Shown: positions 11,821 to 64,000 of the stretch, in pieces
How positions within the stretch are numbered: position 1 is the first letter of the stretch
Layout of the letters: every line of letters begins with the position of its first letter
Source of the DNA: a virus
Virus record (IMG/VR): IMGVR_UViG_3300048904_000313
Coordinates: 9,468 to 73,467 of that record
Strand: one strand, 5' to 3'
DNA length: 64,000 nt
Notes under the pieces: generated by a model
Seen by the model: only the letters and a program-made list of their open reading frames with translations
Databases searched by the model: none
Told to the model about the DNA's origin: nothing
Translations under genes and position numbers: made by a program

Positions 11821-12234
11821 ATGGGACTGTTCGGAAGTGGCCGCAAGCCGGTGGTAGGTGGCGTGGTCTTAAGCTCCGACGGCGCGACGTTCCTCGCCGC
11901 GCAGCGGAGCTACCCACCCGCCCTGGCAGGGCGGTGGGAGCTCCCTGGCGGCAAGTCGGAGCCCGGTGAGCGGCCGCCGGACACGCTGAAGCGCGAGCTC
12001 CTGGAGGAGCTCGGCATCCGCGTCAACGTGACGGTGAAGCTCAGCGGCAGCGTCAACGTGCCCAACTCCGACCTGAAGCTTCAGGTCTGGGTGGCACGTC
12101 TGGTGAGCGGCCGGCCACGCCTCATCGAGGGGCATCAGCAGATCAGGTGGTTGACCAGGGACCAGTTGTGGTCAGTCAACTGGCTGGACTCCAACAAGTC
12201 GTTCGTCAGGCAGATCCCAGCTCACCTGACGTAG
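11821..12234 (+). CDS. Nudix (MutT-like) hydrolase
   Basis: Nudix box GRWELPGGKSEPGERPPDTLKRELLEELG; in-frame TTA codon at 11869. Confidence 0.9.
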   Translation: MGLFGSGRKPVVGGVVLSSDGATFLAAQRSYPPALAGRWELPGGKSEPGERPPDTLKRELLEELGIRVNVTVKLSGSVNVPNSDLKLQVWVARLVSGRPRLIEGHQQIRWLTRDQLWSVNWLDSNKSFVRQIPAHLT

Positions 12235-55088: not shown

Positions 55089-55373
55089 CTACTGGGGCGT
55101 GGAGATAAGCCAGCTTACCACGCCGGAGATCGTTCCAGGAGCGATCACGTTCACCGCGGCGCCAGCTGATCCAGGGTACCCCGAGATCGGCACCGGTGGA
55201 GCGTTGTTCGGGATGGCAAAGCCGTTGGTGGCGGTGACCGCGTTGGGGCCGAAGCCCACGTAGACGGTGCCGCCACTCGTGTTGGAGATGACCACCTGAC
55301 ACGGCCCGCTGGGCACCGTGAAGAGCACGGTGGAGGAGGCGGTGGGTGCCTTCGCGCTTGCGATGAGAGCCAT
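55089..55373 (-). CDS. Small beta-rich virion protein
   Basis: ATG at 55373; ISNTSGGTVYVG...VT.TNGF.I, paralogous to the two upstream genes. Confidence 0.65.
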   Translation of the reverse strand: MALIASAKAPTASSTVLFTVPSGPCQVVISNTSGGTVYVGFGPNAVTATNGFAIPNNAPPVPISGYPGSAGAAVNVIAPGTISGVVSWLISTPQ

Positions 55374-55380
55374 CAGTGCC

Positions 55381-55857
55381 TCACATCGCGACCTGGATGC
55401 TGCCACCCTGGTGCCCGTTGAACTGACCGAAGGTCACGCCGCTGGCGTGAGCGTTCGCGGTCGCGGCGACAACCACGCTGGTGCCGGTGGAACCGGCGCC
55501 CACGACGACGAGCTCCGTGTTGTTGCCGTCGATGATCGAGATCACCATGCCGTTGGTGAAGCTGGCGCCGCCCGAGGCCACGGTGATCGCGGTGGCGCCC
55601 TGAGCGATCTGCGCGCTGGCGGTGCTGGTCGGCGTCTTGATCGCGTCAACCGCGGCGACCGCGTACAGCTTGGCGTTGTAGCAGACCTGCATGGACTTGC
55701 CCGCGCCGAGCGGGAAGCCGGTGGCTGCGGTGACCGCAGACTGACCCAGGTACAGGGTGGTGAGACCCGTGTTGGTCAGGGTGGCGGTCGTGTCGGCGCC
55801 CGATGGCGTGAAGACCACGACGGGCGAGGACGGGACGGAGACGGTGGTCACTGCCAC
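55381..55857 (-). CDS. Beta-rich virion (decoration-like) protein
   Basis: LTNTG.TTLYLG...VT.ATGF.L plus the AGAT.ITV...AHASG module. Confidence 0.65.
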   Translation of the reverse strand: MAVTTVSVPSSPVVVFTPSGADTTATLTNTGLTTLYLGQSAVTAATGFPLGAGKSMQVCYNAKLYAVAAVDAIKTPTSTASAQIAQGATAITVASGGASFTNGMVISIIDGNNTELVVVGAGSTGTSVVVAATANAHASGVTFGQFNGHQGGSIQVAM

Positions 55858-55883
55858 GGTGGTTACCTTTCGGGCGAGGGGGT

Positions 55884-55919
55884 GGGCTGGCCGGCGACGG
55901 GGGTAGCGCCGGCCAGCCC
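55884..55919 (-). terminator. Intrinsic terminator hairpin
   Basis: GGGCTGGCCGGCG / CGCCGGCCAGCCC perfect 13-bp stem. Confidence 0.7.
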
Positions 55920-55932
55920 GGTGTGCGGCGCC

Positions 55933-56253
55933 TCAGACGGTCGCGTTGACCGTGGAGAGACCAGCCTGGATGCTGGTGGTGCCCGAGGCGGTGATGGCGT
56001 ACACGTCGCCAGCGGTGTTGCCCTTGACGTAGTCGTAGCCGTAGATGGTGATCTGCTGGCCCGCGGCCAGACGCAGACCCGTGACGGTGACCGCCGCGAT
56101 GCCGACGAAGCACGTGGTGCTGCCGGTGTTGACGAGGGTCAGGTTGGTGAGGTGCGAGCCCGTCGAGTAGAGCGACGACGTGGTGTCGAACACCTTGGTA
56201 GCGCTGTTGGTGACCGTGGTGGTCTGCACGCTACCCGAGGAGAAGATGGCCAT
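55933..56253 (-). CDS. Small beta-rich virion (decoration-like) protein
   Basis: LVNTGSTTCFVG...VT.TGL.L; directly after MCP. Confidence 0.65.
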   Translation of the reverse strand: MAIFSSGSVQTTTVTNSATKVFDTTSSLYSTGSHLTNLTLVNTGSTTCFVGIAAVTVTGLRLAAGQQITIYGYDYVKGNTAGDVYAITASGTTSIQAGLSTVNATV

Positions 56254-56289
56254 GATGGCCGTCCTTTCGGTGACGAAGGTCGAGCGCAG

Positions 56290-56313
56290 AGGGGGCGGCT
56301 CTCGCCGCCCCCT
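56290..56313 (-). terminator. Terminator after the major capsid gene
   Basis: AGGGGGCGGC-TCTC-GCCGCCCCCT. Confidence 0.75.
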
Positions 56314-56319
56314 TCACGA

Positions 56320-58134
56320 TCAGCTGAACGGCGTGGTGTCCGAGACCTGGAGGCCCTGGAGGATGCCGCTGTACTGCGGAGCGTGCGAGACGAGCGCGCC
56401 GTACATGAAGAGCGAGTAGCGGAACGTGGCGTCGATGACCGGCCAGGCGATCGACACGTAGTCCTGGACCATCGTCATCTCCCAGGCGTTGGCCACGTTG
56501 GTCCACGTCTGCGGGAGCTGGTAGGTCATGAGCATCGCGGTGCCCTGGGTCAGCCAGGGGTGAACCACGAGCTTCAGGATGCTGCGCGTGATCGGGTTCT
56601 GGAACTCCGACACGGCGGCACCGACGCGGGCGCCGCCCACCTCGGCCTGGTCGAGGAACAGGCGGTAGTTCGTGGCCGAGCCCTGCGAGATGATGTCGTT
56701 CGAGAGGCGCATGATGTCGCCACCCTCGCCGACGATCTCCGCGGGGTCGGCGCGGAACGCGCCGGGGTTGTTGCTCGCACCCGGAGCACCGTCCCACAGA
56801 CCCTGAAGGGCCGTGTAGAGGACGTTGTAGTTGAGGTGCTGGCCCACGTTCTGGTTGACGTAGCCACCCTGCCAGTTGGCGGGGTAGACGCCGGCCGAGG
56901 CCGACTTGCCGGTGAGGGTCGGGATCAGACCCTCCATGCGGGTACCCGAGCCGGTGCCCGTGTCCGCCGCTGGCTTGGTCGTGGTGGCCGGCAGCGCGCC
57001 CTGCAGCGTGTACTTGGTGCCACCGACACCCGACGCCATCAGGTAGTAGTTGGCGCCGTCGTAGGCGTAGAGGTCGTACGACAGCGCGCCCGCGACCGGG
57101 GTGATCGTGACGTCCACGACCTGGCCGGCCGAGACGGTGAAGGCGCCCGAGTTCGCCGAGCCCGCGGTGCCACCGTAGTAGTTCTTGGCGACGACGGCCA
57201 CGTTGGTGAGCGTGGTGTTGAGCGCGGTCTCGTTCGAGCCAGCGGTGCGAACCGCGGCCGTCGGAGCGGCGGGAGTGGCGAGAGGCTGCGACGTGGCCGC
57301 CAGCATCTGGTACTCCTCGCCCAGCATCATCTCCTGGAGGAGGATGAGGTTGGCGAGCGCGGAGATGTCCTCGAAGCCCTGGCCGGCGAACTGGGCGAGC
57401 CACGAGAGCGACTCGGTCAGGCCGAAGAACTTGTACGGGACGTTGAGCTGGGTCTCGGTCTGCGAGCCAGCACCCGGGAGGTTCAGCGGCCACGAGGTGG
57501 ACGCCAGGGTGCCGCCAGACTGGACGAGCTCGGGGATCGAGATGTCGAGGACACCCTGACCACCGGTCTGCGAGCCAGAGATACCGGTGAACACGCGCTC
57601 GATGCGCGACGTGCCCTGACCGGCCGGACGTGGCAGCTTGTTGCGGAAGACCGTGTAGACCGGGTAGATCAGGCGCGACGGCGCGAGCAGGTCGAAGGGG
57701 ACCAGGCCCGAGACGGTGCCGATGCCGAGGTTACCGGCCGTGAAGGACTTCAGCGCGTCCGCGCCACCGGGCATGGAGCCGACCAGCTGGCTGATCTGCT
57801 CGCCCACGGACGGCATGTTGAGCGCCGTCTTCAGGGTGCCGAACTGGTCGAGGAAGCCCGGGTTCATGGACTTGACGACCGAGGCGCGGTTTGCGTAGCC
57901 GCGGTGGGTCTCCGCGCGGAGCTCCATCGTGGCCTGGTGAGCCTTGGTGGTGACCACCGAGGCGTCGCTGAGCGCGGTGTTGCCGTTGCCGACGAAGCCC
58001 GCGCCCTTGACCAGGTCGGTCATCTTGGCCTTGAGCATGTCGCCCGAGCGCGAGTACCGTGGCGCTTCAGCCGCGGCCTTCGCGATCGCGTCTCCCGGAG
58101 TGGGAGCCGGCTCCGTGGTGAGGATGTCAGCCAC
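56320..58134 (-). CDS. Major capsid protein (604 aa, with internal insertion)
   Basis: Follows the protease/scaffold gene; strong AAAGGAGG RBS; terminator downstream; PFDL.AP.RLI.P...FRN.LPR..GQG. Confidence 0.75.
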   Translation of the reverse strand: MADILTTEPAPTPGDAIAKAAAEAPRYSRSGDMLKAKMTDLVKGAGFVGNGNTALSDASVVTTKAHQATMELRAETHRGYANRASVVKSMNPGFLDQFGTLKTALNMPSVGEQISQLVGSMPGGADALKSFTAGNLGIGTVSGLVPFDLLAPSRLIYPVYTVFRNKLPRPAGQGTSRIERVFTGISGSQTGGQGVLDISIPELVQSGGTLASTSWPLNLPGAGSQTETQLNVPYKFFGLTESLSWLAQFAGQGFEDISALANLILLQEMMLGEEYQMLAATSQPLATPAAPTAAVRTAGSNETALNTTLTNVAVVAKNYYGGTAGSANSGAFTVSAGQVVDVTITPVAGALSYDLYAYDGANYYLMASGVGGTKYTLQGALPATTTKPAADTGTGSGTRMEGLIPTLTGKSASAGVYPANWQGGYVNQNVGQHLNYNVLYTALQGLWDGAPGASNNPGAFRADPAEIVGEGGDIMRLSNDIISQGSATNYRLFLDQAEVGGARVGAAVSEFQNPITRSILKLVVHPWLTQGTAMLMTYQLPQTWTNVANAWEMTMVQDYVSIAWPVIDATFRYSLFMYGALVSHAPQYSGILQGLQVSDTTPFS

Positions 58135-58200
58135 GAGAGCCTCCTTTCACGTGTGCGATACAGGTGGCAAGTGCCGGAGGGTAGACGTCCGGCAGCCGTG

Positions 58201-60828
58201 TTACTGGATGCCGTTCATCTGGTAGAGCTTGGTCCAGGCTGCTTCACGCTCGCCTGGGTCCGGGCTGAAGCGAGCCTGCTCCTGCAGGGCCGCCATCAGT
58301 GCCGCCTGCGTCCGCTCCGCGGCGCTTGCGACGGTCGACGTCACCGACGCCGAAGACTTGAGGGCGTCAGGGGCTGCCATGCCCTTGAACGCGGTGACCG
58401 TGGGGTCGGGGAGGTTGGAGAGCTCGTCCACGGTCTCGGCGAGCTTGGCGTTCTTCGCCTGCTCGTCCTTGAGAGCCTTGGTGAGCTCCTCGACCTGAGT
58501 GGCCAGAGGCGTGAGCGCGTCCACAACCGCGGACTTGATCAGCTCGGCGTCCACGGTGGCCGCCTTCGTGATCAGCTTGTCCTTCTTAGCCTTCTTGACC
58601 TTGGGCTCGATCTCCTCCACCACCGGGGTGACCTCGGGCTCGACCGTGGGAGCCACCGGCTCCTCGACGGACTTGCCCACGTGGGTCGCCGGCGCGTTGG
58701 CGTCCGGACCGGCACCGGGGTGGTGATCGCCGTGCATGGAGCACAGGTCGGGGAAGGTCTGCGCGATGTGATCATGCATCGCGGCGAGCGCGCTGCGAGC
58801 GGCGTCCCGCTGCACGTTGCGGTAGAAGGAGCGGCCCTTGTTGGACGGGCTCTGCGCCGCGTGATCACCGGTCAGTGGACCACGAGTGAAGTCCTCCGCC
58901 GTGATGTGGCCGGTGGGGACCTGAGCCGTGTTGGGGCCGTCGTAGTCGGTACCGTGGCTCGCCTGGCCGGCCGTGAGGACGGGGCGGCGGAAGCGGACCG
59001 GGCTGAGCTCCGTCGGCGTGGGGAAGGTGCCGGGACCAGGGTTGGCGTCGCTGAAGGACTTGTGAGCCTCATCGCGGATCTCGTCGAGCATCGCCAGGTC
59101 GGCGCCCTTGATGGTGACCGAGTGCTGCCAGAGCTCAGTCATCTTCTGAGCCTCGGCGAGCGGGGCGTTGGCCGCGGCGTCCAGGGCCTTCGCCTGCCAC
59201 ACGTTGACGTCCATCGTGTGCAGGTTCTCGGCGGGATACGCCTTGCCGACCTCGACGGGGTCGAAGGCGGGGCAGGTCAGGTCGTGGATGACGCCCAGGT
59301 CGGAGGGGACACCCACGGACTTGAGCCGCTGGGCCGCCTTGACGCTGGCGTCTGGGGTGGTGGGCATGTTCGCGTCCGCCTCCAGTGCCTCGATGTCGGT
59401 TCCGTCAGGCTCGCGGTGAGCCGGGACTGGCTTCACGTTGGAGGCACCCACGCCCACCACGCCCTCGCCAGGGGTGTCGCTCTTCTCGACCACGGGCACC
59501 TGGTGACCGCAGTTGCCGCAGAACTTGGTGGCGACCAGGTTCTCACAGCTGGGGCACGCGACGCCCTTGTCGGCCTTCATGCCCATGCACTTGCCGCAGT
59601 CGCAGTCACTGCCACACGAGCCGCAGCCGGTGCAGTTGCCGCCCTCGCAGCCGCAGCCTGGGCAGCAGCTGGCGCCCTTCTCGAGGTCTTCCTTGTCCTG
59701 ACCACCGGACTTCGGAAGCGCCTTGCCGCAGCCGGAGCAGTTGCGCAGCTTGGAGTCGGAGTCGAAGCCCTTGCCACAGCCGCTGCAGGTCTTCCCGCCC
59801 TTGGCGCCCTTGGTCTCATCGGGCTCTGCCACGGTTTCCTCGCCGTCCTTGCCGGTCTCCGCGGCCTTGACCTCGCCGCCCTCGTCGTCGGCGTTGTCGT
59901 CCTCGACGTCGGGGTTGTCGCCCTTGGCCACGATGGCCTCCATCTCACTCTTCCAGGACTCTGGGAGCTGCGCCTCGAACTCCGGGCCCTTGCGGTGAGC
60001 GATGCTCGTGATCCGGCGGCGCAGCTCGTCGCTGGAGTAGTTGTCCGCCCCGGCGCGACCGATGGAACTGGCCGCGTCGCTGACGTCACCGGGAGTGACG
60101 ATGGGGAAGGAACGGTCGCGGCCGGCGAAGTCGGACGCGGGGATCTTGTCGCGGTCCACGCCGCCACCCACGTTGGGGTCCATCTGCCGCTTCTCCGCGG
60201 TCGCGCGGTGCTGCAGCAGCTTCGCCAGGTCGGCGGGGCTGAAGGTGGCGTTGGCGGGGAGGACGACGTCCTCGTCCTTGGCAGCCTTGGTCAGCACGTC
60301 CGAGTCACCGAAGACCTTGCCGCTGAACTCGACGTTGCCGTCCTTGTCAGCCTTCACCAGCTGGATGCCGCAGTTCTTGTTGGCCGGGCGGTCGACCAGG
60401 CTGATCTCCACGATCTCCCCATCGACGATGCGGCCGTTGCGAGCCACACTGTCGCGGACGATCTTGGGGCGCGCGATGCCCACGGAGTAGGCGCGGAGCG
60501 CCTTGTGCCGCACGAGGTTCTTGGCCTCGGTCTCCACCACCAGGCTCTTCACCCAGGTGGAGCCGTCCGCCTCGGTGTTGACCTCCACGCCAACGCCGGC
60601 GGGGTCGCGCTGCGAGTTGTGCTGGACGCGTACGTTCGCGCCGGTGGCCAGCCAATCGGCGATGGCCTTGCCGGAAAAGTCCGTGTCGACGATCTGCTCG
60701 TCGCTGTCGACGCTGCCGTCCGTGGCCTTGCCATAGACGTACAGGTTGCCGTCGCCAGTCTCTTCGAACTTGGTGATCGGGAACGAGATGAAGGTCAGCT
60801 CACCGGCTGACGTCAGCGTGGCTGCCAT
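58201..60828 (-). CDS. Capsid maturation protease fused to scaffold-like and Zn-ribbon regions
   Basis: HK97-type protease pattern VYG.A.....D.D.Q, VRVQH, AYSVG, EISLVDRPAN; multiple CxxC; C-terminal coiled coil. Confidence 0.8.
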   Translation of the reverse strand: MAATLTSAGELTFISFPITKFEETGDGNLYVYGKATDGSVDSDEQIVDTDFSGKAIADWLATGANVRVQHNSQRDPAGVGVEVNTEADGSTWVKSLVVETEAKNLVRHKALRAYSVGIARPKIVRDSVARNGRIVDGEIVEISLVDRPANKNCGIQLVKADKDGNVEFSGKVFGDSDVLTKAAKDEDVVLPANATFSPADLAKLLQHRATAEKRQMDPNVGGGVDRDKIPASDFAGRDRSFPIVTPGDVSDAASSIGRAGADNYSSDELRRRITSIAHRKGPEFEAQLPESWKSEMEAIVAKGDNPDVEDDNADDEGGEVKAAETGKDGEETVAEPDETKGAKGGKTCSGCGKGFDSDSKLRNCSGCGKALPKSGGQDKEDLEKGASCCPGCGCEGGNCTGCGSCGSDCDCGKCMGMKADKGVACPSCENLVATKFCGNCGHQVPVVEKSDTPGEGVVGVGASNVKPVPAHREPDGTDIEALEADANMPTTPDASVKAAQRLKSVGVPSDLGVIHDLTCPAFDPVEVGKAYPAENLHTMDVNVWQAKALDAAANAPLAEAQKMTELWQHSVTIKGADLAMLDEIRDEAHKSFSDANPGPGTFPTPTELSPVRFRRPVLTAGQASHGTDYDGPNTAQVPTGHITAEDFTRGPLTGDHAAQSPSNKGRSFYRNVQRDAARSALAAMHDHIAQTFPDLCSMHGDHHPGAGPDANAPATHVGKSVEEPVAPTVEPEVTPVVEEIEPKVKKAKKDKLITKAATVDAELIKSAVVDALTPLATQVEELTKALKDEQAKNAKLAETVDELSNLPDPTVTAFKGMAAPDALKSSASVTSTVASAAERTQAALMAALQEQARFSPDPGEREAAWTKLYQMNGIQ

Positions 60829-60866: not shown

Positions 60867-60896
60867 ATCGTGGTCACTCGTCGTCATTGAACTCAG
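60867..60896 (-). promoter_or_regulatory. Possible late promoter upstream of the protease gene
   Basis: TGG-TAAGAT extended -10; weak -35. Confidence 0.35.
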
Positions 60897-61089
60897 TGGC
60901 AGGGGTCCACTCCGTGTAGAGGAGCGTACGAGTCACCCACTTGCCGTCATCGAGTGGCAAGACATAACCACCTCGCGTGTACACCGTGTTGTGCCTGAGC
61001 CGAGGCCGGAGGCCAGCCTCGGCGCAAGCGTTGAGCGCGGCGGTGAGACCGTTGAGAAGCCTGAGCGTCTCGTCAGCCTCACTCGCCAC
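60874..61089 (-). CDS. Small hypothetical protein
   Basis: ORF track; overlaps portal stop. Confidence 0.6.
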   Translation of the reverse strand: MASEADETLRLLNGLTAALNACAEAGLRPRLRHNTVYTRGGYVLPLDDGKWVTRTLLYTEWTPATEFNDDE

Positions 61090-64000
61090 GAGCTTCCCTC
61101 ACCAGGCGCTGGACCTCCACGATATCACGCAGAAGCTCAGGCCTCACGGCGAGGTTGTTCGTGAGCTGGTCGGGTTCCCACCACGCCAGCGCCTCGAAGT
61201 AGTCGCCATCGGGGTCGTCCGGGTTGATCACGTCGTCCCGGTCGCCGTTCCAATCGACCTCGTCCTCGCTGGCGATGACGTAGATGAAGCCCTGGTAGAC
61301 CCCGTCAGAGGTGACCCAGGAGCCTGCGAGACGGCCTGACGGGAGGAGGCAGCCTGTCTCCTCCTGCCACTCGCGAACGGCACCCATGAGACCCGTCTCG
61401 CCGTTCTCGAGGCAGCCACCGGGGAACTCCCAGTGACCAGCCGCGGGGTCGTCATCCACGAGGGCTCGCTGGAGCATCAGGATGCGACCGGTGTCTGCCG
61501 CCAGCACGGTGAGGCCGGCGGCGACGGGTGGCTCGTGACTCTTCGTGGCTGAGCCAGTTCCGTACCAGCGATCACACGTGTCACCGGGTTCGATGGTCCC
61601 GGTGACCAGGGTGCAGCCGTGTGGTGAGCGGAACATGGTGCAGGTGTCGCAGCGCTTCTTGGGGTCGGTGGCTTCGCGGTAGTTCACCGACGCCTTGGAG
61701 ACCTTCTCGTTCTTGTTGAGCGAGTCGGCACCCTGGTGAAGCTGCGACGAGTGCGTGGCGATCCAGCGGTCATCGCCGTCGGGAACGGCACCCACGAAGG
61801 CGTCGATCGGCTTGCCGAGCTGGCGGTAGGCCAGGGCACGGTGATGGCCGTCCACGATCCGCAGGCGATGCTTCCCGGGAACGCGTACCAGGATGGCTGG
61901 CTTGAGCCGCTTGCCGCGGTTCAGCTTGTCGACGAACTCCTGCACACGCTCAGTGTCATGGTGAGCCGCCCAGCTGGCTTCCCCGTCGAAGTCGACGTCG
62001 TGGAGTGGAACGATCTCCACTGTCCACTTCGCGTCCTTGACCCACTTGATCGCCTTGCCCGGGAAGTTCTTGGACATGACGGCGATCACCTCAGCGGCGG
62101 GAGCGCCACCCACGACGCCCTTCACCGTTCCTGGTGGGCTGCTGACTCCAGCCTGGTCTCGACCACCGCCGGGACCGCCCTGAGCGCGAGGCCAGACGTC
62201 CTGCTCGGCCATCCGAGGACCGCCGCCCTGAGCAGGCTGCTGGCCTCGACGGTCGGGCATGGCGGCGTCGTTCCCGCCCTGAGGGTGATGAGCGTGGGTG
62301 CCCTCGCTGAACGTGGAGCCGCTGCTGGTTCCCTCAGCGGGCGCCCAGCGTGGTGGCTCACCGCCAGCGCTGCTCCCAGGCGTGCCGCCTGGAACCTCGG
62401 TGTCGTCGACGTCGTGAGCGGGGAAGACCCGCCCGCCACTGCCCGACGCGTTCTCGTTGTGGTTGAGGTCCTGGTCGAGCCAGACCGTCTGCCCGTCGAG
62501 GTCGACTCGACGAGTCGCCTTGACGACGCTGATCGCGATGCCGATGTCGCCACCCTCGATGTTCGCTTCCGCGATGCGGGCGAGCAAGCTGTGGCTAACG
62601 TGACGAGGCGTCCAGCTGGAGATGAGACGGCCCTTGCGGACGTGACGAGCCAGGGCGTCGAGCTCAGACTCGAGCGCCTTGGTCTTGCCAGCGTCTGCCG
62701 GCTTCTTGCCACCACCGCGACTGCCGGCGGCGGAGCTGTGCCCTGGCGTGGCAGCTGCGGTGCCGCGACCGCTGGCCATGGCGCCTGGCCGGCCCGACAT
62801 GATCGGGTTGACGCGAGGCTTCATGCCGGAGCCACTGGCAGACGGAGCGTTGCCCGCCGCCGGTGGCGTCTTGCCAGCGGCGCCAGGGGCAGGCTCCTTG
62901 CCGGGTGGCACGTAGCCGATCGCTTGGCTGCTCGGTGGCATGCCCTGCGGGGCGGCACCGGTGAGCATCTGCGTGGCGTGAGGCGAGCCCTCGGGCAGCT
63001 CCATGATGGGGCCACCCATCGCCGAGTCCAGAAGGCGAGCCTCCGTGGCCTCCACGAGTGGTACCCAGCCGTTCGGGGTGGACCAGCCTGGGTCGGAGGT
63101 CTCGGGGAGACCCCACGGCTGCAGGTTGAGCTCCTCGCGTGCCTCGTCGATGGAGCGAAGACCAGCGCCGATCTGCTTGACCAGGAGCTCAGTCTTCAGC
63201 GACTCGTCGTCCTCGGCCTCCAGGCCCTCGAAGACGAAGCGCATGTCCTCCTGACCAGCGATGTTGTGGAGCACGCTGGTCATGATGTCGGCGAGGAAGG
63301 TCAGGATCGGCTTGGTGGCCTTGCGCTCCTGGATGTCCTGCGTGGCCTTGGACATCTGGTTGGCCGCGCCGGGCGAGACCGTGGCAGAGACCTTCGGCAT
63401 GATGCCGAGTTCCATCGGCTGGATGTCGAAGGCCATGCAGACCTGGTTCATGACGATCTCGTCGAACTGGTCGGCGATCTGCACGTTCTTCTGCGGGTGG
63501 ACCTGCGAGTCGGCGGGCAGCACGATGATCTTGTGCTTCCACGCTGGGTCGCCGGCGATCGCGTTGAGCGCGTCCTGGAGCTCACGGATCTGGTTCGGCG
63601 TCAGGTTCTGGTTGCTGCCACCAGGCGAGACGAAGACCGCGGGGACGGTGCCCTCACGGAAGTAGTCCAGCTGATAGGCCTGCTTCTGAAGGCCTGACAT
63701 GACCGGGATGAGCGCGCGCTCGATGGGCGGGAAGCCGTACGGCGTCCAGCGTCGCGGTGACATCGGCAGGTAGAGTAGCTGATCGCCACGGAACTGCTTC
63801 AGCTCCGCGCCGCTGAGGCCAGCCTGCTCGATGTCTCGCTGCGTGATCATCGTCATCAGGTCGGAGCGAGGCACGCCGTAGAGGTACTGCTGATAGGCCG
63901 GTGCCGGTGGCCGTGGGTACGCACCGTTGATGTCGTAGAGAGGTCGAATGGTCGGGCCGCTGATCAGGTTCAGGCTGTCCAGGTCCGAGCCGAGGAGACC
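61079..64000 (-). CDS. Portal protein (5' partial) fused to ParB/Srx-like, HiPIP-like and Nudix domains
   Basis: Frame stays open to the window end (GLLGSDLDSL...); portal pattern YG.PPIE....YFREGT.P...Q.....V..AF.I.P.ELG; C-terminal IVDGHHR.LA, CxxC..C..C, WEFPGG....GE....A.RE..EETG. Confidence 0.85.
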   Translation of the reverse strand, partial: GLLGSDLDSLNLISGPTIRPLYDINGAYPRPPAPAYQQYLYGVPRSDLMTMITQRDIEQAGLSGAELKQFRGDQLLYLPMSPRRWTPYGFPPIERALIPVMSGLQKQAYQLDYFREGTVPAVFVSPGGSNQNLTPNQIRELQDALNAIAGDPAWKHKIIVLPADSQVHPQKNVQIADQFDEIVMNQVCMAFDIQPMELGIMPKVSATVSPGAANQMSKATQDIQERKATKPILTFLADIMTSVLHNIAGQEDMRFVFEGLEAEDDESLKTELLVKQIGAGLRSIDEAREELNLQPWGLPETSDPGWSTPNGWVPLVEATEARLLDSAMGGPIMELPEGSPHATQMLTGAAPQGMPPSSQAIGYVPPGKEPAPGAAGKTPPAAGNAPSASGSGMKPRVNPIMSGRPGAMASGRGTAAATPGHSSAAGSRGGGKKPADAGKTKALESELDALARHVRKGRLISSWTPRHVSHSLLARIAEANIEGGDIGIAISVVKATRRVDLDGQTVWLDQDLNHNENASGSGGRVFPAHDVDDTEVPGGTPGSSAGGEPPRWAPAEGTSSGSTFSEGTHAHHPQGGNDAAMPDRRGQQPAQGGGPRMAEQDVWPRAQGGPGGGRDQAGVSSPPGTVKGVVGGAPAAEVIAVMSKNFPGKAIKWVKDAKWTVEIVPLHDVDFDGEASWAAHHDTERVQEFVDKLNRGKRLKPAILVRVPGKHRLRIVDGHHRALAYRQLGKPIDAFVGAVPDGDDRWIATHSSQLHQGADSLNKNEKVSKASVNYREATDPKKRCDTCTMFRSPHGCTLVTGTIEPGDTCDRWYGTGSATKSHEPPVAAGLTVLAADTGRILMLQRALVDDDPAAGHWEFPGGCLENGETGLMGAVREWQEETGCLLPSGRLAGSWVTSDGVYQGFIYVIASEDEVDWNGDRDDVINPDDPDGDYFEALAWWEPDQLTNNLAVRPELLRDIVEVQRLVREARGE

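Follow-up and report, generated by a model that had tools for sequence, protein, structure and literature searches.

A phage portal protein that carries ParB/sulfiredoxin-like, HiPIP-type and Nudix domains in one reading frame, a candidate head-packaged effector cassette

We analysed a 64,000-nucleotide stretch of DNA (the window), bases 9468-73467 of the 107,550-bp virus record IMGVR_UViG_3300048904_000313, which is classed as linear and is 100% complete according to CheckV. Its G+C content is 62-69%, and the source is an uncultivated, high-GC phage, probably an actinobacterial one. At the far end of the window lies a minus-strand open reading frame (ORF) that joins a portal domain to a string of further domains, and this portal-cargo protein is the subject of the present work. 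The ORF stops at 61079-61081 and is open through the window end; in the full record it starts at a GTG preceded by GAAGAAGGGGG, at record position 74142, 675 bases past the window end, and its product is 1198 amino acids (aa) long. The original prediction, made from the letters of the window, had described a portal protein joined through Gly/Pro/Ala linkers to ParB/sulfiredoxin (Srx)-like, high-potential iron-sulfur protein (HiPIP)-like and Nudix cargo. This architecture was recovered in a single frame, together with an additional conserved domain, here called the 'mid' domain. All coordinates below refer to the minus strand of the window unless stated otherwise.

Because long chance ORFs occur in high-GC DNA, the frame was checked in three ways. 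Pfam matches to the portal (PF04860) and Nudix (PF00293) families, at opposite ends of the ORF, share one frame. G+C at the third codon position (GC3) is the highest of the three positions in all 90-codon windows of the ORF except at codons 766-900, where the tie arises because a Gly/Pro/Ala-rich linker raises G+C at the first and second positions (GC1 and GC2). More than 100 homologues, which come from independent assemblies (JGI, ENA, NCBI and Logan), likewise carry the fusion in a single ORF, and the nearest of them, 87% to about 40% identical over the cargo, have portal and cargo in one ORF. A hidden stop or frameshift between the domains, which the original prediction had named as a way in which it could fail, was not found in the ORF, and the portal-cargo fusion in one continuous frame is confirmed. 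A high-GC shadow frame is present elsewhere in the window: an 1830-aa ORF at 55318-60810 (+), antisense to the capsid and protease genes, is no gene.

The portal domain (63110-64000, continuing past the window end) matches PF04860 at 48.3 bits, with a gathering cut-off of 39.1, and phrog_2662 with an expectation value (E) of 3.5e-44 over residues 88-522. It is 28% identical to the portal part of gp3 of Arthrobacter phage Mufasa8. The gene sits in a head module, in which protease/scaffold and then capsid genes come after it.

The first cargo module, residues 860-985 (61721-62098), is by profile and model comparison a member of the ParB/Srx superfamily with a loop of serine-kinase type, which reads IVDGHHRALA. 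A profile built from 119 homologues matched the free serine kinase SerK (E 5e-5), SbnI (7e-4) and Noc (0.1) in the PDB, and the domain also matched NCBIfam SerK (E 1.5e-6) and the ParB-like family phrog_1033 (E 1.2e-5). The AlphaFold model, with a predicted local distance difference test (pLDDT) score of 92-98 across most of the domain, is closest to Arabidopsis sulfiredoxin (Z 11.1, root-mean-square deviation 2.6 A over 88 residues), followed by SerK (Z 9.3), human Srx (9.0), SbnI (8.9), PadC (8.9), KorB (8.2) and Osa (6.0). Foldseek matched PadC at 8.7e-5, and fold searches of AFDB and BFVD returned generic ParB/Srx proteins alone. Residues W19, W25, W43, D83, G84, H86 and Q119 are invariant in the family; within the DGHHR loop the same holds for the D, the G and the second H, and the first H occurs in 90% or more of members. 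The family lies outside all Pfam models: the isolated piece gave a sub-threshold match to DndB (E 0.15), and none of the 119 relatives passes any Pfam model, with a few weak matches to DUF1015, ParBc_2 and DndB.

Within the superfamily, the phage domain shares with the SerK/SbnI/sulfiredoxin branch the fold (Z 8.9-11.1) and the SerK-like nucleotide-phosphate loop IVDGHHR, but its family has in addition a pair of N-terminal helices that bear three invariant Trp, and it has in common with SerK the roughly 120-residue ParB/Srx core alone, without the C-terminal half of that enzyme. Four more specific assignments were considered and rejected. A ParB CTPase clamp of the ParB/Noc/KorB kind is contradicted by the lack of a GERRxRA motif, the lack of a following helix-turn-helix (HTH; the HiPIP-type domain comes next) and the Noc value of E 0.1. 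Sulfiredoxin proper would need the catalytic Cys of FGGCHR, a position where 90% or more of the family have His (DGHHR). The SerK equivalog (NF053625) was matched at 27.5 bits against a cut-off of 380, over profile positions 33-80 of 244. A DdrB-like ParB found no support in hhalign against P1 DdrB (probability 0.4%, E 0.16, outside the N-terminal ParB region), a comparison with a single-sequence target from which very distant kinship could escape. In three homologues (P0125, P0126 and P0129) two ParB-like domains stand in tandem at the N-terminus, in P0125 ahead of DUF6582 and a Mu-like prohead protease; such pairs are a hint that the domain may work as a dimer.

The second module, residues 986-1045 (61541-61720), has four Cys spaced C-x2-C-x8-C-x12-C; among 46 homologues three of them are invariant and the fourth is present in 90% or more. 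A profile of these homologues matched HiPIPs alone in the PDB: PioC at E 7e-8, the Rhodothermus HiPIP at 2.4e-7 and two others below 1e-3. All four Cys, a conserved Tyr before the first and an aromatic residue after the last align with PioC, which has a Trp before the fourth Cys where the phage family has Val or Thr. As a single sequence the domain matched NCBIfam Iro (iron oxidase), which is itself a HiPIP, with E 3.1e-10 (40 bits against an equivalog cut-off of 100). PF01355 (HIPIP) is matched by 8 of the 46 relatives; this copy has no Pfam match at E <= 0.01, and the isolated four-Cys piece gave sub-threshold noise (NoBody, E 0.034). Residues 124-177 of the AlphaFold cargo model (pLDDT 84-94) align to HiPIPs alone, first to PioC (Z 4.9, 48 of 54 residues, 31% identity) and then to six more. 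Profile and model together identify the module as a HiPIP homologue that is predicted to bind a [4Fe-4S] cluster, and the four-Cys spacing was read correctly in the original prediction. Cys spacing, Tyr, C-terminal aromatic residue and fold are shared with PioC, Iro and the HiPIPs of purple bacteria, but classical HiPIPs are free-standing periplasmic electron carriers, whereas the phage copy lies inside a virion protein that is made in the cytoplasm, and has no signal peptide.

The HiPIP fold is an iron-sulfur (Fe-S) scaffold known for its oxygen tolerance, and the lambda tail-tip protein gpL is a precedent for an Fe-S cluster in a virion protein. Among 50,697 isolated phage genomes, tblastn with the ParB+HiPIP piece did not detect the ParB/Srx-like domain, and its sole match, to Synechococcus phage S-SRM01, was weak (E 0.06). 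This cultured cyanophage encodes a free-standing 67-aa protein that matches the HiPIP profile (MW015081.1, 47313-47468).

The third module is a complete Nudix hydrolase domain, residues 1046-1198 (61082-61540), with a Pfam match that maps to 61154-61528 (PF00293, E 6.7e-16, 59 bits against a cut-off of 21.1) and a match to phrog_1198 (E 2.3e-15). The Nudix box is intact and reads GCLENGETGLMGAVREWQEETGC; its G, E, RE, EE and G do not vary across 74-97 homologues, giving the family pattern G-x5-E-x7-REWxEExG, and the domain has a family-specific segment, NPDDPDGD...ALAWW. At least 500 Foldseek matches at E <= 1e-3 are all Nudix enzymes, and the list is headed by ADP-ribose pyrophosphatases (about 1e-7). 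The profile matched in the PDB BdRppH (6e-11), MutT and CTP pyrophosphohydrolase (about 1e-10) and ADP-ribose pyrophosphatase (4e-7), the values for BdRppH, MutT and NudG spanning 6e-11 to 4e-10, and no NCBIfam equivalog cut-off was reached. We take the domain to be a MutT/RppH-like pyrophosphohydrolase, an activity predicted from sequence. Structural comparison domain by domain, which the original prediction had put forward as a check, agreed with all three of its assignments (ParB/Srx fold, Z 11.1; HiPIP, Z 4.9; Nudix, Foldseek matches), and the boundaries it had given were within about 20 bases of those reported here.

Between portal and cargo lie two linkers and the mid domain. Linker 1 (residues about 523-649, 62729-63109) is of low complexity and rich in Gly, Pro, Ala and Ser; it has no family match, and GC3 is still the top position in the portal frame. 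The mid domain (residues about 650-765, 62381-62728) is present in 84 of 120 homologues, with E22, R28, G33, W39, R73, G79 and G98 invariant in their alignment. We did not recognise its fold: it has no PDB sequence match in a profile search (best E 0.17) and no Pfam or NCBIfam match. That it is a MuF core was rejected, since PF04233 is located elsewhere in the homologues that bear MuF. Linker 2 (residues about 766-859, 62099-62380) is rich in Gly, Pro, Gln and Ser. Just upstream of the ParB-like domain is an in-frame GTG at codon 855 (62111-62113) with GAAGG ahead of it, from which internal initiation could yield a free 344-aa cargo; this start is one of five matches of its kind in the ORF, which is chance level.

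The cargo recurs widely. A search with the 339-aa cargo as query matched 689 proteins, and in the best 120 of these, which were analysed, ParB-like and Nudix domains were always both present (the query held both). The scaffolds to which they are fused are PF04860 portals, PF04233 (MuF) or PF06074 (Mu portal), and some of the 120 also have inteins, an ADP-ribosyltransferase or a 2H domain. Intein or homing-endonuclease domains (PF13403, PF14528, PF14890) interrupt the portal-cargo homologues P0054, P0064, P0087, P0095, P0104, P0108 and P0115 and account for their lengths of 1.5-1.9 thousand residues. With P for ParB-like, C for HiPIP and N for Nudix, the domain orders among the 120 are PN (58), PCN (21), NP (16), PNC (14), CNP (10) and CPN (1). 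On a tree of the ParB domain the order label must change 40 times or more, so that the association of ParB-like and Nudix domains has outlasted many rearrangements. On the same tree this phage and its nearest relative, both with HiPIP, are nested inside a HiPIP-less clade, and the HiPIP is therefore an optional, often exchanged insert.

Used by itself in an exhaustive HMMER search, the ParB-like profile gave 1021 clusters at 50% identity, 347 of them at E <= 1e-30. Among 133 new ParB-like representatives, many of them fragments, 54 have Nudix or HiPIP and 79 do not. A Pfam census of 53 ParB-like representatives of 500-1450 aa found as partners Nudix (17), portal families (13), MuF (11), ADP-ribosyltransferases (8), 2H phosphoesterases (4-6), Mu-like protease (3), DUF6582 (3) and Acb1 (1), and there is one portal-InPase fusion among the ParB-like relatives. 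Because of this spectrum of partners, the ParB-like family is a general cargo of head proteins, found alongside nucleotide- and NAD (nicotinamide adenine dinucleotide)-centred effector domains. The original prediction had held such cargo to be more typical of MuF proteins than of portals, which was not borne out: most of the closest homologues have the cassette on a PF04860 portal, and in the census portals and MuF proteins are equally frequent (11 each of 53). A genome search with the single protein found Nudix matches alone, in Jatrophihabitans, Streptomyces and Natrialba, and no prophage copy of the cassette; the Nudix matches hint at an actinobacterial host. An atlas feature search reached scores of 0.88 at most, which count as leads.

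The genes that follow the portal gene fit a head module. A 71-aa ORF (60874-61089), which has no family match, overlaps the portal stop by 11 bases at its start and is likely to be translationally coupled to the portal gene; its position is kept in one relative (L013), where a 74-aa gene comes after the portal. Next is an 875-aa fusion of head maturation protease and scaffold (58201-60828; phrog_21715, E 4.7e-17), which has weaker matches to further head maturation protease families. This protein contains a Cys-rich block at residues about 345-470 (about 59420-59800) with many CxxC pairs, which looks like repeated zinc ribbons and would be unusual for a scaffold/protease protein. The 604-aa protein encoded at 56320-58134 matches phrog_13692 (E 4.2e-54), a family with no named function, and is the probable major capsid protein on the basis of its position after the protease/scaffold gene. 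MuF (PF04233) has no match in the portal-cargo protein, nor in the whole genome searched in six frames at E <= 1. Two additional Nudix genes are free-standing, one at window 11842-12198 (+) and one outside the window at record 103722-104081 (+), which brings the total for the phage to three Nudix domains.

Parts of this architecture have precedents. Fusions of NudE-like Nudix domains with MuF, portal and head protease have been described as probably packaged and injected (Iyer 2022, PMC9503650, section 3.5.2), and polyvalent head-packaged multi-domain effectors were defined together with a DdrB-like ParB family (Iyer 2017, PMC5512222), the ParB domains of polyvalent proteins being proposed to act as nucleoside triphosphate (NTP)-regulated DNases. 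The gp3 proteins of the Arthrobacter phages Mufasa8 and Sonali resemble the portal-cargo protein in their portal, a Pro/Ala-rich linker, a Nudix domain that is 43% identical and a place in the head module. They end, however, in a C-terminal MuF and are without ParB/Srx-like or HiPIP domains, whereas the portal-cargo protein has no MuF and contains ParB/Srx, HiPIP and mid domains in addition. Polyvalent proteins are alike in placing several unrelated enzymatic domains in one head-associated polypeptide, and their domain list takes in the partners seen among the relatives as well (ADP-ribosyltransferases, 2H, InPase and ParB-type domains; PMC5512222), but their ParB family is DdrB-like, and P1 DdrB showed no detectable similarity to the phage family in our comparison. 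With ParB/Srx, HiPIP and Nudix domains on a portal, the protein described here has a polyvalent architecture; packaging and delivery are proposed.

HiPIP is mentioned in neither PMC9503650 nor PMC5512222; the former never mentions ParB or Srx, and the latter mentions Nudix once, not with ParB. The NARP3 paper makes no ParB/Nudix link. Full-text searches of the literature that combined HiPIP with phage, portal or capsid returned nothing relevant, and in the searched literature we found no report of a HiPIP-type Fe-S domain within a virion protein. Portal- and MuF-Nudix fusions are thus already known, and what we did not find described is the SerK/Srx-like subfamily of ParB/Srx domains and the HiPIP in phage head proteins.

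We consider it reasonably probable that the C-terminal extension is a head-packaged polyvalent effector cassette, carried on a genuine portal and acting on nucleotide-derived host molecules. As judged from its domains, the extension appears to be an enzyme cassette of the beads-on-a-string kind. Portals of solved structure have their C-terminus in the crown, facing the capsid interior, which places about twelve copies of the cargo inside the head; by this analogy the cargo would be built into the head with the portal, pointing inward, and would act at or just after DNA entry. Its targets could be compounds of the type NDP-X (a nucleoside diphosphate linked to a further group), 5'-triphosphate or NAD-capped RNA ends, or immune signals based on ADP-ribose or nucleotides. 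The ParB/Srx domain may bind the nucleotide or transfer its phosphate, and the Nudix domain may cleave the pyrophosphate bond. The HiPIP could supply an unusually oxygen-tolerant Fe-S cluster, suited to an extracellular virion, with a structural or redox-switch role. That the cassette is an early effector set against nucleotide-derived molecules we infer from the partner spectrum and the literature. The suggestions of the original prediction, that the cargo degrades nucleotide signals, senses redox state and is ejected or cleaved, would fit the partners present in relatives (ADP-ribosyltransferases, 2H, Acb1 and InPase).

Several points weigh against this reading. Packaging, cleavage and injection of the extension are steps that we infer, and an Fe-S cluster would be lost on unfolding for passage through the tail channel. 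The substrate class of the Nudix domain is split, its sequence being nearest to MutT/RppH/NudG types while Foldseek ranks ADP-ribose pyrophosphatases first. The complete co-occurrence of ParB-like and Nudix domains in the top 120 is biased by a query that held both, and the pairing is frequent but not obligatory (79 of 133 ParB-like representatives, many of them fragments, are without Nudix). The AlphaFold model of the three domains has no confident inter-domain packing (predicted template modelling score, pTM, 0.48), and no composite active site can therefore be argued for. A complex prediction of the ParB-like with the Nudix domain gave no answer (interaction score ipSAE 0.00) and counts neither way.

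The alternative that survives best is a morphogenetic or DNA-handling role, in which twelve ParB/Srx domains round the portal channel would form a nucleotide-gated clamp or nickase on the packaged DNA end, with the Nudix domain tuning the bound nucleotide. Nothing would be delivered to the host, and the role would be like that of SPP1 gp7 (MuF). The lack of MuF (PF04233) in this genome, while relatives fuse the same cassette to MuF, speaks for such a role, as does the DNase activity proposed for polyvalent ParB domains (PMC5512222). Fold matches to CTP-binding members of the ParB family (PadC, Z 8.9; KorB, 8.2; Noc) point the same way, but the domain has no GERRxRA CTPase motif and is followed by the HiPIP rather than an HTH, and its closest relatives in sequence are SerK, SbnI and Srx, phosphotransferases that act on small molecules or proteins. 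Tandem ParB-like domains in some relatives hint at dimerisation. The partners found in other phages, which speak against this role, are classic injected effectors (ADP-ribosyltransferases, 2H phosphoesterases and Acb1). We regard a DNA-handling role as unlikely.

Still less credit is due to a late role in the producing cell, where the cargo would be produced alongside the late head proteins, perhaps released by the prohead protease or translated from an internal start, and would clean or reshape the nucleotide pool, for instance by clearing away canonical or damaged (deoxy)nucleoside triphosphates ((d)NTPs). The solved Nudix enzymes nearest in sequence, of the MutT, CTP pyrophosphohydrolase and RppH types, are consistent with pool functions, but two free-standing Nudix genes are already available for these. 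The GTG at codon 855 with its GAAGG, a Shine-Dalgarno-like element, would provide the internal start, but is one of five chance-level matches. Moreover, the Nudix domain belongs to a conserved clade (mean column identity 60%) that is always on head proteins, in very different phages, and because of this constant fusion we favour a link to the virion over a metabolic one. Last, that a frameshift, an assembly chimera or a high-GC shadow ORF has fused separate genes has next to no probability: high-GC genomes do typically have long spurious ORFs such as that at 55318-60810, but the Pfam domains at both ends share a frame, GC3 favours the portal-cargo frame throughout, and dozens of independent contigs (JGI, ENA, NCBI and Logan) with the same one-ORF fusion already contradict an artefact.

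A bolder form of the effector reading, which we rate as a long shot, is that the virion delivers the cassette as a redox-gated eraser of nucleotide signals, by which an NAD/ADP-ribose or nucleotide immune signal would be destroyed or re-routed before phage genes are expressed. The oxygen-tolerant HiPIP cluster would report the shift from the oxidising exterior to the reducing cytoplasm and would switch on the two-step pair formed by the SerK/Srx-type phosphotransferase and the Nudix domain. If true, the two enzymes would form a novel pairing, and the HiPIP would be the first known to take part in infection.

Of all phage proteins, head-packaged effectors are the earliest to encounter host immunity, and to our knowledge bench studies exist for few of them, such as T4 Alt and P1 Dar. 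Because the ParB-like/Nudix pair survives rearrangement and keeps company with ADP-ribosyltransferases, 2H phosphoesterases and Acb1, the head-packaged cassette is a candidate for a counter-defence or host-takeover activity on nucleotides. The HiPIP cluster, if bound, should give colour and an electron paramagnetic resonance (EPR) signal, and so offers a simple biophysical handle. For the family as a whole, about 1000 clusters of ParB/Srx-like domains at 50% identity, with no Pfam model, make up a widespread cargo module that domain libraries have mostly missed.

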